Shown here in pieces: positions 24,001 through 30,000 of a DNA stretch of 64,000 nt. The stretch is from a virus (taxonomy: Duplodnaviria; Caudoviricetes). How positions within the stretch are numbered: position 1 is the stretch's first letter; the number at the start of each line of letters is the position of its first letter. The position numbers were made by a program. The DNA lies in the IMG/VR virus record IMGVR_UViG_2687453341_000008. One strand, given 5' to 3'.

Positions 24001-27000
24001 ACCAAGCATTGAGGTCGTAGTTCCAGGGGTCCGAGATTTTTTTAATCGCCAATTGCATAGCGTGGGGGGCTGCTGCGAGTATCTGCTCGTGACAGTAGCT
24101 ATCAACCAGCATGTAGTTACACCGGTGCCCCCAGCATTTGACCGCGTGAGACCGCCTCTCAATTTCATGGACTGCGAGTGGAGGCCAAGAGGACGAACCG
24201 CCGCAACTCATGCAACGCTGTGGATGTTCCAATCGCCAGCTTTCACGATCCTCCAACACACTTTTGAGGTACGCATCTGCCTGCATGTAAATTTACGTTG
24301 CCACACGAATAGACGAAAAAACCTTCTTGCGGAATCGACTGACCTCCCTATAAACGGCCTGGACACTGACGCCAAGGCTTTCCGCGATTTGCGGCTTCCG
24401 AACGCCGTTCATCATCATGTCTACGACTGCTCGAGTTCTACGTCCTTCCGCGGAAGCCAAATCTAGATAGTTCTCTAATTTTTCGGCCATCATCGCTGAC
24501 TCTTCCGCGCTTGGGGAATACCGCGTGAGGCACGGCAGAAGTACCCCGCGAAACGAACTGCTGTTATCGCCCGGGAGAAATGTTTTCGCGGCTAGGTCGC
24601 CAGATCGCTTTTGCGTCGTCAATTTCTCAATTTCCCTGTAAGTTGCACTTCGAGCGATGCAAGAAACCCATCGTAAATAGGCGTGGTAGGTCTCAGCCTT
24701 GCACCTGCTCGATAGCGTCATCGAGACTTCGGCAAGCGTTATCTGCACAACATCATCAATATCTAGTTTCGACTGAAATCGACTGCCAAGAAAGCTCTTC
24801 ACGATTACGAAAGCATACCACTGTGAGCTTGCGATTAAGTCATTCAAGGCTGCAGCCGATCCGGCTTTTGCCTCGCGAAGCAATTCGTCGTTCATCTTGA
24901 AATCCTGGTGTGGGTGGAACAGGTCCTACTGTGATACCTAGAAAGGACGGAAATCTCCACAGCTGTTTACACACGAATTCAAGATTTTTCCTCCTCACGC
25001 GCCGTGCCGTTCCCGGCCAAATGCCGTCGCTCAGCTCCGCGCCATCGGCATGACGACGTACCGGTAGAGCGAGCTAAACGCGAGCATCACCGGGACATTT
25101 CCGTCTTTCACGTACATGGTCGACTGGGACTTAGCAGGCAACGCCTTGAAAAAGTCAGCCAAGTAGACGTGATTCACATTTACCGCTACGGGCTCGTAGT
25201 CGTACTGGATCGGAACTTCGACGTTCGACTCCCCCGATTCGGTTTTCGAACTTACTGACACCTTTCCTGCATCAAACGCGAACTCAACCGACCGGCTTTC
25301 CTTATCGGCGGCGATCGCGGCTTGCCGAATCCCCGAGAACATCTCCTCGACATCCAGAATGACTTCCTTTGCGTCTGTCACACTTGGAAGAACCTGCCGC
25401 CAGTTGGGAAACTTGCCTTCAATGAGATGCGTCGAGAAGGCGCAATCTCCCATGTCGGCCCGCAGCTCGGTTTCCGAGAACCTTAAAGTCACGTCATCCG
25501 ACTCTCCCGCAAGCCCGAGCATAGAAACAAGAACCCGCAGTGCCCTCGCAGGGACAATGTAAACGCCAATTTGAGCATTTCCTTCGCACGCTAACTCGAA
25601 GGCCGACAATCTATGGCCATCCGTTGCCACACACTCCAGGGACCCACGCCCAAGATCGAACGCCACGCCTCCTAGTTGGTAACGAGCACTCGACTCGTCG
25701 CAAGCGAACTCGGTTGCGCGGATCGCGAACAGCAGCGCCCCCGCTTTGACTTGGACCGCCGCATCGGGACATGGCATGGTCACTGGGAATTCATCCGGAC
25801 TGGAGGCCCCAAACTGAAACCGAGCCCTGCCGCACTGTACCTTCACGTGCTTGCCGTCATCGATATTGAACTCGATTTCGTCACCTTTACACTCGTTGAG
25901 AACCGAGTGCACTTTACTTACCGGGAGAAGAGTTCGAAGATCGCCTTCAACGTCCACCTTGGCTTGCAAGTAGACCTCCCCGTCGGACGCGGTAAGAGTC
26001 GCTTTCCCGCCAGCGGCTGAGAGATGGACATTGGTAAGGATCTCTTTGTGTCGATTGTTGGCGACACGCGCAACGACCCCAAATACCCTTTTGAACTCGG
26101 CTGTACTAGCTCGCATTTCGCATCACCTTTTCACGCAGAACAGGAACTTCCTTGCGGGCACGTACCACCACGGTCACTTTTCGCCCGCCACACCTTGAAA
26201 TCTCAATTTCGCTGTCTCCAACGAAAAAACGCTCACCCTTTTCGATCTGCAGAACCAACGTTCCCCTATCGGATGCTTTGGTAATACCGTTCGTTTTCGC
26301 TTCGTTCTTCATGCCAGAAATCCTTTTGCTGTTCTTCAAATAGCCGAGCTTGCCGTTGAAGCTCTTTGCGCCATTCACCATCGACTCCATTCAGCAGCCC
26401 CTCTTGGATCTCATCATCTCGAGCGAGGTCCGCCCAATAGCCGAGATCGCAAACCCAATGAGACTGCCCATATTCGCGAACAAGTCTATGCGCCAAAGAC
26501 TCGAGGCACGCACCCCTCAGGAGCCGAACCACAAACGCAAGTGCCACATTCGGGATGCCACTCAGTTCGTCTTCGGTTAAGCCTGAAAGCCAGTTTTGGT
26601 CGTACATGTTTCTTGCTCGTCGGTAAATGAATTGACTCAACCAACTAGGCCGGAAATGGGCACGATTTGTTTCAACTTGCTCGAAAAGAATTGCGGAGCG
26701 ACGAGCAAACCCACCGCTCCGCAATCTGCCGCTGACACCCACTGCCAACGGCAGGCTGTAAAGAAAACAGGATCGAGCCTACCAAATCAAATGGTCGAAC
26801 TCGGAGAGTTACCTGAGATCACCGATCGCAACTCATCTGTGACCGCTGGAGCACCCTCTTGCATGCTTGGCCGACGTAATGGAACGACAGCCTTGGTCCC
26901 ATCCTCCATGCTGATAATTGCTTTGGTCAGGTAGCAGGAACGTCCTGTGATGGACGAACACGCTCCGTCCATCGCACTCGAGTCGTTGACGTAAGCGATC

Positions 27001-30000
27001 GTCACGTGCGGGTTGTACTTCGGGTGCGTCAAAACATGCGGCAGGCTATCACGCAACTTACGATTGATCGCATGCAGGGCGGGCGACTCTACAGCAACGA
27101 TCAGAGGTACCCCGCGATCGCCACCAGGAAAGCTCGTGACGCCCCTGAAACTGACTAGAGGCGATTCGAGCCTCGACACAACACGTGCGATTTCGTCTAC
27201 GCTTGCGCCCGTGATTCCGTACAACGCAGTGACATGGGGTTCATCTTCCCGCCCGCCCACGGAGAGGTCCGCGTCATTCAGGCATGCAGCCTCTCTCAAC
27301 ACCGCATCCTCGATCGCCTCGGGCAACTTAAGCATCACGCACGCGTACTTATGGGCTCTGCCGACTTCGAGCAACTTGGACTCCAGTTCATCGCGCCCAC
27401 TTAGCGACGGTATCGACTTCACGAACGCAACGGCGTCGGTACCGTAACTCCAATCCCAAAGCCCGCTCGAGCCGCTTTCTTCGTTATCGTCATCCAGAGG
27501 ACGAAGCCGAAACCCGGACGACTCGAAGATGTCTGTCACCTGAGGAGAGATCTCTTCTAGCAAGGTAGGGTCCACGTCGATCACGTGCTTTAGTTTGCGA
27601 TGACCAATTCGGATCGCTTTGTCGACCGGTGGTATAAATCCACTCGCCGCGCCAGACGCCTTGATGAGTGTTCTTGGATCGACAGGGCCATTTGCGGTCA
27701 GGATGAATCCGTCGAGTTCATTTCCGAACGTCGGTTCCCCTCGTTTCGTGCGATACTCTCCGACCGTCATCACCCCGATCTTTGAATCCGCTTCGAGCCT
27801 CCGATCTTCGAGCTCCGGATCGTTTACCGCGGGGACCTCGAGTTCGATACTGACATGCTCGCCATATTCACGACCGAGGGTTATTGTGTCCTCGTCAGCG
27901 ATAAGGTCCATGTCGGGTTGGATACTGAGCATGGACGTTCCCAGCAACGACGCTGCAAGGCTCGAATAGGTCATACCGTCTTGAATGCCCAGCGAAGATC
28001 GTGACACGCCATGCGCCGCAAGCACGCAGTCCCGCAACTGGTCATGCCCTTCCACAAACTGCATTTCGTCCGCAGTTCGCTTGTGCACCACCGATGTGGC
28101 TTTTCCGACAAATGTTACTGCCGCCCCGTCGTCACTAAGACGGCGAGAAAGATTGTCCTCCACTTCGCTCAGCTTCTCGGGATCGTCCTCGTCGGAAGTC
28201 AGCAACAACTTGCCGTTTGGTCCTTCTCTGTAAAACTTGTCGCGACAATCGTCGAGGGCGTTGGACGCATCGATCCAAGGAGCGGCTGCATTGGTAGGAG
28301 ATGCTCCATCCCCTTTCAGGAACGGATGCGGGTACTTGATCACCGTAAGCATTTCCGCTGGCAACTCGACACCCACAAACTGGCGGATCGCTGAAAACGA
28401 CTCTTCGTCGTAGCTCGCTGAATAGGTTGTCCATGACTGAGGCCGAATGATGACTCCACCTCGCGGCATACTCTGGTACCGACCTGGCCGGATCGGTGTC
28501 ACCATCGCCATCGGAATCACGTATCTTTCAACCGTTCTCGTTTTCAGCACATTAGGACGGTTAAACACCAAGCAGCACCCGTGAAGGCGCAATTGAACCA
28601 TTTGCTCCCACCGGAATGCGCCCCCGCTTTGGCGAGGGTGAGGACGATTCAATAGTCGCATGAGCGGATGTGTTGAATCCGCGACCGTTCCCTGATGTTC
28701 ACGTACAAGACCCTTGCGTACGCTTTCTTCTCGCCACCGAGCCCCAAACTCCATCCGCAGCGCCTTTCGCTGCGTCCGCGCTAAGGGATCCTTCGAGTCA
28801 TCGTAGACGTAGACCAGCGCACGAGTTGCCTGTCTCGCAACGGAAGTGATCGCGACGTAGTTCCACCCACGAAAACCCTCGAGCTCCGCTCTATGGTCGC
28901 TTGCGACATCGCCGAGGCGATACATCGACAGAACTTCGTCAAGGATTTCGTATAGATTTGCTGGCCCGTGCATTCCTGTTCTCCTGCGGGGAACTTAGCC
29001 GAATGCCAATCGCAGTTAAACCGTCGGATACCCATAGACTTGCCGCTCCACGTCGCCGCGAATGTAAAGCGGGTGTTTTGGGCTTCCGTTCTCGTTTACT
29101 CCCAAGCAGTGGACTTTACCGAGAATCTTCAAAACAGCTTTCGCTCTCTCAGGATCGCAATGCACGCCCCATCCGACGATGATTTCCTGAACTCGCGCGG
29201 CGACACTTCCCAATACGGCATCGTTTTCTTCACCGACCGGATTGTCGATTGTTTTGAGCCCGCGTGGGTCGGTCGACCTAAACGCGTAAGCATTCAGCAT
29301 AGTGAAACTGCCAAAGCCCCAATTCCTGGAGAACTGAATACATCGGCGGATTGTTGGATCGTCGATGAGCTCGTCTGCGGTACTCGGGTTCAAGCAACAA
29401 AACGCGATAGCCGGTTTCGATGGATCCCATATCCTCCAAAGCGAGTATCTCCAGACTCGGCAGGGGGAAAAGTGAGCCCCCTTCTCCATGTGAACCTCGA
29501 ACAATGTGAGTTGCTTCACGCCGTAACCGCCATTTCGTGAAAAGAGAGTTGCAAATCGGACTGCGTTTTCAACATTGCAGGCCCTCATACATGATTTCAA
29601 TGGAATCAAAATCCCGCCTTCTCGAGGTGGGATACACCGCCAGATGGCAGTCGTTTTTTTCGAACCGACAAGCGATGATGCGATGCCAACCACTTCGATG
29701 CTCGACGGCAAAAAGATGCCCTACGCGCCGCATTTTCCTCTCGATATAGTTTCCCAGATAACGAACGGCAACTCCCTGCCGGCTAGCCAGCATTTGCTGG
29801 ATCTTCAGTAAGTCGCTTAACGGGTGTCGGTAATCCGGACGGACAGCAGCAATGCAGTAGAGAGTCTCCACCGCGATCTTCCTCCAAGCGGTCAGAATCT
29901 CCCAGTCATCGACCAATGCACCCTTCGGGAGAGCGACCGCGGCAGACGTAAACTCTGTCTCGGCAGAGATCACAACCAGATCTGGTCGCCCGCTAGCTGC

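Follow-up and report, generated by a model that had tools for sequence, protein, structure and literature searches.

A prophage portal protein carrying a C-terminal 2H phosphoesterase domain in a Pirellulaceae chromosome

Acb1, Apyc1 and the viral 2H phosphodiesterases (PDEs), the known signal-destroying enzymes, have been described as separate proteins that are synthesised once infection is under way. A 2H clade fused to MuF or portal proteins was treated by Iyer et al. 2017 (J Bacteriol 199:e00245-17), who found it in no case linked to RNA ligases and propose two roles, an RNase comparable to Usb1 or the degradation of the nucleotides of nucleotide-activated defence. The same prediction stands in section 3.4.5 of Iyer et al. 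2022 (Viruses 14:1977), where 2H domains joined to MuF or portal proteins would be packaged and injected and would destroy immune nucleotide signals. Here we describe a gene in a 64,000-nucleotide stretch of prophage DNA (IMG/VR record IMGVR_UViG_2687453341_000008; the whole stretch is called the window below) that encodes an HK97-family portal protein ending in a 2H phosphoesterase domain, hereafter the portal-2H protein. This Pirellulaceae prophage protein is a further, planctomycete example of the portal-2H simple polyvalent proteins. A preliminary description of the window, made from the sequence alone, had presented it as a virion-borne candidate against the cyclic-oligonucleotide-based antiphage signalling system (CBASS). 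The fusion is genuine by Pfam, homologues and fold, and a suggestive link to Acb1-type enzymes was found by sequence, but the architecture and the anti-signalling idea are not new, since both were already in print in the passages of Iyer et al. 2017 and 2022 on these fusions, which nearly match that inference.

The planctomycete protein shares with the portal-2H and MuF-2H proteins of those passages the head anchor followed by a C-terminal 2H domain, the terminase-portal phage context and the proposed role. The family described here adds an acidic middle domain of ~80 amino acids (aa) and a catalytically dead subclade, neither of which is mentioned there. Among solved enzymes, 2H PDE-9 (9Q2G/9Q2Y, titled Burkholderia phage BCSR5 phosphodiesterase) and the Acb1 proteins of T4 and FBB1 (7T26/7T27) have in common with it the 2H fold and two HxT motifs; they are free-standing viral enzymes, 140-165 aa long, whose short lid is N- or C-terminal, whereas here the core ends a 728-aa portal. 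According to Doherty et al. 2025 (bioRxiv 10.1101/2025.08.21.671373), 2H PDE-9 has the catalytic residues H50 and H123 (Fig. 3 legend), cleaves 3'3'-cyclic GMP-AMP (cGAMP), as Acb1 does, and belongs to the same structural group as T4 Acb1, and the substrate range of viral 2H enzymes varies by structural group and is set by the enzyme core. The same preprint reports extra domains on 13 of 75 viral 2H PDEs, and its main text never mentions the word "portal".

The concept of acting on the host from the virion, at DNA entry or earlier, is shared with T4 Alt, MuF-fused toxins and ICP3 Gp15. The last is reported in a preprint as an essential ejection protein and an inhibitor of the CBASS effector CapV, so a virion protein with anti-CBASS activity has a precedent, with a different mechanism. 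T4 Alt, the MuF toxins and Gp15, as described, are ejected, whereas no portal is known to leave the capsid, and this one would need either proteolytic release or a role before assembly.

Architecture and conservation of the portal-2H gene

The portal-2H gene is a single unbroken 728-aa open reading frame (ORF), present in one copy in the 6.53-Mb host genome. Its parts are as follows.

26787..28973, minus strand: whole portal-2H gene, 728 aa plus the stop codon, with an ATG start and no internal stop
27663..28973, minus strand: HK97-family portal domain, residues 1-437 (PF04860 and Foldseek matches to HK97 portals)
27594..27662, minus strand: disordered basic linker, residues 438-460 (predicted local distance difference test, pLDDT, below 50; 1 acidic and 5 basic residues)
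27351..27593, minus strand: acidic alpha/beta middle domain, residues 461-541 (confidently modelled, with a conserved pattern)
26871..27350, minus strand: 2H phosphoesterase core, residues 542-701 (PF13563; Z 15.4 to 11 against 2H enzymes)
27228..27236, minus strand: first catalytic motif, H580-V-T582 (aligned to H50 of 2H PDE-9, 9q2g)
27000..27008, minus strand: second catalytic motif, H656-V-T658 (within the stretch aligned to the second HxT of 9q2g, with the catalytic His H123)
26790..26870, minus strand: C-terminal tail, residues 702-728, with one short helix (low pLDDT, poorly conserved)

The protein is an HK97-family portal by Pfam profile, fold and head-module setting, as the preliminary description had stated from the ORF at 26787-28973. 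The Pfam family PF04860 (Phage_portal) matched residues 93-411 with an E value of 2.2e-22 and 80.1 bits against a cut-off of 39.1, and the PHROG portal families 2662 and 12 were matched as well. The full-length AlphaFold model (mean pLDDT 75.9) gave as its top Foldseek matches the HK97 portals 8fql_A and 8cez_A (E ~5e-11, template modelling (TM) score by target 0.63-0.64), followed by the portals of T5, the gene transfer agent GTA, phage 812 and lambda. With the HK97 gp3-type portals (8FQL, 8CEZ) it shares the Pfam family, the fold and a head module containing a terminase and an HK97-fold capsid protein; the solved HK97-type portal chains have 346-450 residues, and the portal-2H protein carries ~290 extra residues at its C-terminus.

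The C-terminal enzyme domain was recognised by PF13563 (2H) at residues 576-673 (E 1.9e-11, 44.7 bits, cut-off 27). Exactly two HxT motifs, H580-V-T582 and H656-V-T658, occur in the whole protein, and their contexts, EPHVTALYG and YNPHVTIAY, had been quoted correctly beforehand. The boundaries of ~26880-27355 given earlier for this domain agree with the structure-derived 2H core at 26871-27350. The description of an acidic linker needed revision: the acidic stretch DDDNEE (residues 494-499) is a loop inside the folded middle domain, and the true linker at 438-460 is basic.

The linker differs greatly in length between homologues, and residues 438-460 are, by inference, a candidate processing site. 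The middle domain (residues 461-541; 17 acidic and 7 basic residues) carries the family pattern "VDxTLL ... VWDW ... KSLP" in the alignment of homologues. It matched nothing in Pfam or PHROGs, its search in the ESM Atlas gave no usable feature match, and its structure matches all had TM scores below 0.5. The motif "DVDPT" in this domain resembles motif I of the HAD family, but its first Asp varies across the family and an assignment to HAD was rejected. A lid role for the 27-aa C-terminal tail would be speculation only.

A word-indexed search of 5.8 billion proteins yielded 30 homologues besides the query (38-88% identity; alignment n=31). Precomputed Pfam annotation placed PF04860 and PF13563 together in 24 of the 30, and both catalytic histidines were kept in 25 (26 of 31 with the query). 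One member, P0031 (438 aa), is a portal only. Four others (P0013, P0015, P0016 and P0017) form a subclade with S or A, and L, in place of the catalytic histidines, and these retain a 2H domain of full length. Such a His-less protein might act as a binder or sponge that does no catalysis, or might be left as a structural remnant only.

A syntenic fused copy with 81% identity is present in Pirellulaceae bacterium SH501, on its closed chromosome (L018), and the fused gene was also found on viral contigs (L002, 46% identity; L003, 36%). Between the window gene and the SH501 orthologue, synonymous sites were saturated, the proportion of synonymous differences (pS) being 0.72-0.78 and, for the 2H domain, 0.718. 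The proportion of nonsynonymous differences (pN) was 0.071 for the portal, 0.229 for the middle domain and 0.182 for the 2H core; given the saturated pS, the last value indicates that the 2H domain is under purifying selection. The C-terminal tail was 41% identical, with a pN of 0.40.

An origin of the fusion in misassembly or in a frameshift error joining two genes has a negligible probability and is excluded for practical purposes. An unfused arrangement does exist: in a Pirellulaceae genome (G120, C1:365314-367757, L020) the portal and the 2H domain are matched by two neighbouring but separate open frames, of 496 and 709 aa. Against an artefact, the same continuous ORF is present in at least 25 independent assemblies of varied source, including the second closed chromosome and the viral contigs, and its linker and middle domain are conserved, the latter being confidently folded. 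In another genome (G214, C812:24853-27117, L019) the portal and 2H matches lie in one 1303-aa frame; the two modules thus occur both split and fused within the Pirellulaceae. No record among 50,697 phage records searched by tblastn covered at least 80% of the portal-2H protein. Separate portal matches were found in 2 of these records and separate 2H matches in 12, so that collection yielded no cultured phage with the exact fusion.

Fold, relatives and substrate class of the 2H domain

Residues 455-728 were modelled on the alignment of 31 sequences (mean pLDDT 90.9) and compared with solved structures by Foldseek and VIA-align. Model residues 88-247, corresponding to protein residues 542-701, matched more than 40 solved 2H entries with Z scores of 11-15.4, and membership of the C-terminal domain in the 2H superfamily is certain from the motifs and the predicted fold. 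The highest scores were obtained for the plant cyclic phosphodiesterase (CPDase) 1jh6 (15.4), 1iuh (15.2), E. coli LigT 5ldm (14.6) and human Usb1 (13.9), followed by Acb1 of phage FBB1 (7t26, 13.1), 2H PDE-9 (9q2g, 12.1) and the penguinpox cGAMP PDE (11.2). The proposed comparison with Acb1 and LigT therefore bore out the 2H fold and made no choice between the two, which match about equally well. Naming the substrate from structure was likewise tried and rejected: Acb1, LigT/CPDase, Usb1 and the poxvirus PDE were not separated by Foldseek or VIA-align.

Searching solved structures by sequence recovered Acb1-type proteins only and no LigT. The entries 9q2g/9q2y were found at E 2.4e-4 with the single sequence and at 1.4e-3 with the family profile (22-28% identity), and the profile alignment to 9q2g spans both His motifs; 7t26 was reached at E 0.27. 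This link of the 2H domain to Acb1-type enzymes is suggestive only. The LigT/2',3'-CPDases (5LDM, 1IUH, 5H7E, 1JH6), which have the top structural scores (Z 14.6-15.4 over ~150 residues), share only 10-18% identity with the domain and were missed by the sequence search. The LigT family PF02834 matched the portal-2H protein at 21 bits, below its cut-off of 23.3.

These comparisons bear on an alternative in which the 2H domain acts on RNA, as a Usb1-type RNase or as a 2',3'-cyclic phosphodiesterase that heals phage or host tRNA and mRNA after cleavage by anticodon or abortive-infection nucleases of the host. It is favoured by the best structural matches, which are CPDase, LigT-type and Usb1 enzymes (Z 15.4, 15.2, 14.6 and 13.9), and by PHROG 755, a family labelled "RNA ligase" that the domain matches; the RNase comparable to Usb1 is also one of the two readings offered for such fusions by Iyer et al. 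2017. On the other side, RNA ligases never accompany this 2H clade according to that paper, PF02834 stays below cut-off, and only Acb1-type solved enzymes were found by sequence. Moreover, no RNA ligase, polynucleotide kinase or Tpt1 was present among the ~70 ORFs scanned in the window and on contig L024, although small ORFs outside the scan could hide one. We consider a role on RNA somewhat unlikely.

The wider distribution of the domain was obtained by searching 1.84 billion representatives exhaustively with HMMER, using residues 525-728 as the query. It gave 3353 matches at E<=1e-3, of which 929 had E<=1e-10. The best 150 of the 3353 included 72 proteins of at least 1200 aa, 49 of at least 2000 aa (the longest 6158 aa) and 21 of at most 260 aa. 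A domain scan covered the 70 of these 150 that have up to 1100 aa, the 80 larger ones being left out. PF13563 was found in all 70, with an invariant HxT...HxT pair, and the Acb1 family PF23474 in 38 at E<=1e-3 (best 3.1e-11). Portal families were represented by PF04860 in 8, Portal_Mu (PF06074) in 3, lambda-type portal (PF05136) in 2 and the P23-45 portal in 1, and MuF, ART-PolyVal, NUDIX, Zeta toxin and prohead proteases appeared as single cases. DUF1073 was absent from the 25 families listed for the 70 proteins, and no paper linking Acb1 and DUF1073 was found; fusions of Acb1 homologues to DUF1073-type portal-like domains, named in the preliminary description, are therefore tentative.

Three giant matches and one locus were scanned separately; among the matches, P0038 consists of portal, 2H and NUDIX domains and P0035 of 2H and Zeta toxin domains. 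The 2H domain type also occurs free-standing and inside polyvalent proteins without a portal, and by sequence it belongs to the clade of phage and plasmid polyvalent proteins, its nearest relatives overall lying within giant ones. The domains that accompany it are those typical of the polyvalent proteins of Iyer et al. 2017. Since an effector is fused to the portal of a terminase-portal phage, the portal-2H protein is a polyvalent protein under the definition given by Iyer et al. 2017, as far as the passages on it go, and it is the simplest of its kind, one virion anchor with one effector. A related portal N-terminal region also opens a 2235-aa ORF (9830-16534, plus strand) on a 105-kb viral contig (L011), where it is followed by a polyvalent-type inorganic pyrophosphatase (InPase, PF18823) and LPD1 (PF18796, "large polyvalent protein-associated domain 1"). 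Portal-headed giant ORFs of this kind are cited for Burkholderia virus BcepF1 in Iyer et al. 2017.

The domain survey also informs a second alternative, in which the C-terminal region is vestigial or has mainly a structural function, serving as an internal head or portal-crown decoration that aids assembly or DNA retention, or as a nucleotide binder without turnover. Selection would then be maintaining something other than catalysis. Four of the 30 homologues have lost both histidines, and these four keep the full-length domain and its C-terminal "VVPLRP" strand, and the middle and 2H domains always travel together with this portal clade, as this alternative would have it. Against it, 26 of the 31 family members and all 70 distant representatives retain both HxT motifs. 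Purifying selection acts on the 2H domain, which is also encountered as a free-standing protein and within polyvalent proteins lacking a portal. A mainly structural role is quite improbable.

A second protein of the PF13563 2H family, free-standing, is encoded elsewhere in the lysogen genome (G000:C1:4404494-4404886, plus strand; 221-aa frame) and is presumably a host LigT-like enzyme.

The prophage and its insertions

The window corresponds to positions 6391789-6455788 of a single 6.53-Mb contig, the chromosome of a member of the Pirellulaceae (planctomycetes). The element is a large siphovirus-like prophage with several later insertions. Two further genes of its head module were identified.

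53954..55630, minus strand: large terminase of the same prophage (PF17289, E 2.7e-9)
838..2097, minus strand: HK97-type major capsid protein of the same prophage (PF05065, E 1.4e-30)

In the window both genes are set apart from the portal by insertions. On the viral contig L003 the gene order is terminase, two small ORFs, portal-2H and, further downstream, capsid; there 1.3 kb separates the terminase, which is 38% identical to that of the window, from the fused gene downstream of it, and the capsid homologue downstream of the portal-2H gene is 49% identical to its window counterpart. The 20 kb beyond the window start encode a head-tail adaptor, a minor tail protein, a 908-aa ORF and a 1221-aa tail-like protein. 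When the whole genome was scanned with PF04860, the window portal scored 82.4 bits and the two other matches lay far off, at 4.16 and 5.09 Mb, so the portal-2H protein is the sole portal found in the element. The element was detected in 6 of 300 other Pirellulaceae genomes and in none of the 5 searched from the host's own genus, as expected for a mobile prophage.

Two blocks were recognised as insertions by comparison with relatives. On contig L002, homologues of the window genes at 23654-24286 and 5514-7019 lie only ~600 bp apart; the intervening block in the window is therefore an insertion, and window 7322-23762 looks like a composite one inside the prophage. It contains the following insertion sequences (IS) and cargo.

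7322-9932: IS66, with a tnpB-like gene at 9135-9932 and a transposase at 7322-9268
10539-11630: IS110
~12-20 kb: low-GC stretch (GC 0.46-0.47) with a GT2 glycosyltransferase at 18966-19772
21304-23762, plus strand: IS21 istA/istB

In SH501, homologues of 37003-37674 and 29569-30114 are adjacent, and the genes between them in the window accordingly form another insertion.

30434-36471, minus strand: Type ISP block of low GC (0.47 vs ~0.54), including a 226-aa phrog_9664 neighbour
31111-36471, minus strand: Type ISP restriction-modification enzyme, 1786 aa (Mrr_cat_2, ResIII/helicase, ISP coupler, N6 methylase and Type_ISP_C)

Replication and transcription genes also lie inside the head module, which is unusual. 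These and the remaining features of the window are listed below.

25031-26116, minus strand: DNA polymerase III beta sliding clamp, just downstream of the portal; conserved in SH501
24293-24895, minus strand: ECF-type sigma factor (PF07638), just downstream of the portal; conserved in SH501 and on L002
51396-52157: second sigma-like gene
2164-3687, minus strand: conserved 507-aa ORF directly upstream of the capsid gene, assigned to no family, with a 29%-identical homologue on L003; it could be a scaffold or a protease
5514-7019, minus strand: conserved 501-aa head-module ORF, likewise assigned to no family, with weak P-loop hints and a 50%-identical homologue on L002
52639-53250, 57104-58513, 60184-62649, 29016-29711 and 39482-40027, all minus strand: other cargo or early genes, comprising an AlkB-like 2OG-Fe(II) oxygenase, a ParB-N domain fused to a methyltransferase, an SNF2-type helicase, DUF1643 and DUF7007

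The insertions raise the alternative of a decaying prophage whose portal-2H gene is a relic, neither expressed nor used in this strain. Compared with L002, the IS66, IS110, IS21 and low-GC block separates the portal and capsid modules; compared with SH501, the Type ISP enzyme is inserted; and the element was found in none of the five same-genus genomes. Set against this, the ORFs examined for portal, terminase, capsid and tail run full-length without internal stops, and the insertions fall between genes that are neighbours in relatives and have cut none of them. This alternative, which we regard as having a low probability, bears on activity in this strain only and not on the identity of the protein.

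Possible function of the portal-2H protein

The architecture of the protein, its intact HxT pair, the conservation of the fusion under purifying selection and its head-module context are borne out by the analysis. A function in degrading nucleotide signals, in which the 2H domain would cleave the nucleotide messengers of host immunity in the manner of Acb1 or 2H PDE-9, has in our estimate about an even chance of being correct. The candidate messengers would be the cyclic di- and trinucleotides of CBASS and possibly the cyclic oligoadenylates of type III CRISPR (clustered regularly interspaced short palindromic repeats) systems.

The C-terminus of solved portals points into the capsid, and twelve copies of the ~290-residue extension would therefore be built inside each head. 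Two ways of acting may be considered. The extension could be cut at the disordered linker 438-460 and ejected with the DNA, which would make it active before any phage gene is expressed, or it could act late in the producing cell while portal protein accumulates. For the first, the linker would be the natural place of cleavage, since it is disordered and variable in length. It is distinctly unlikely that the complete course of events holds, namely that a head protease frees twelve phosphodiesterases, tethered to the inner face of the portal, at linker 438-460 and that these enter with the DNA and destroy CBASS or type III messengers before phage transcription. By extension, the domain of the His-less subclade (P0013, P0015-P0017) might serve as a packaged nucleotide sponge.

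Several observations weigh against a signal-degrading function. Delivery needs a cleavage step, because the portal stays in the virion after ejection, and the ORFs lying between portal and capsid, in the window and on L003, included none recognisable as a prohead protease, although one could have been missed. Three IS elements and the cargo blocks interrupt the prophage, which may no longer form particles. In fold the domain scored slightly higher with LigT/CPDase (Z 15) than with Acb1 (Z 13) or 2H PDE-9 (Z 12), and the Acb1 family PF23474 matched the portal-2H protein at 17.1 bits (E 0.0047), below its cut-off of 27. The loss of both histidines in P0013, P0015, P0016 and P0017, with the 2H domain retained, suggests an additional role for the domain that does not depend on catalysis. 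Among the seven groups of viral 2H structures tested by Doherty et al. 2025, two are reported to have cleaved 0 of 18 messengers. The literature searched, to which the supplements of Doherty et al. 2025 and Iyer et al. 2017 did not belong, contained no experimental study of a portal-2H fusion.

The host search for CBASS and type III CRISPR proposed in the preliminary description also came out negative: the lysogen genome gave no match for a SMODS cyclase or for Cas10 (Csm1 or Cmr2). A search of the same genome for SAVED was uninformative, as the controls gave no response either. SMODS was detected in 9 of 150 other Pirellulaceae genomes searched, and the presumed target of a signal-degrading enzyme thus exists in the host family but is uncommon among the genomes sampled. 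The lack of CBASS and type III markers in the lysogen says little about other hosts met by the phage.

The portal-2H and MuF-2H proteins have been predicted as injected signal destroyers since 2017, in the passages of Iyer et al. on these fusions, and the value of the present example lies in its testability rather than in a new concept. It offers a compact test case, in which one 728-aa protein with clear domain boundaries can be studied together with an 81%-identical orthologue from SH501 and with natural catalytically dead variants. If a signal-degrading function holds true, an enzyme built into the virion would remove the time lag of enzymes made after infection has started; if demonstrated, it would be the first pre-loaded anti-signalling enzyme.

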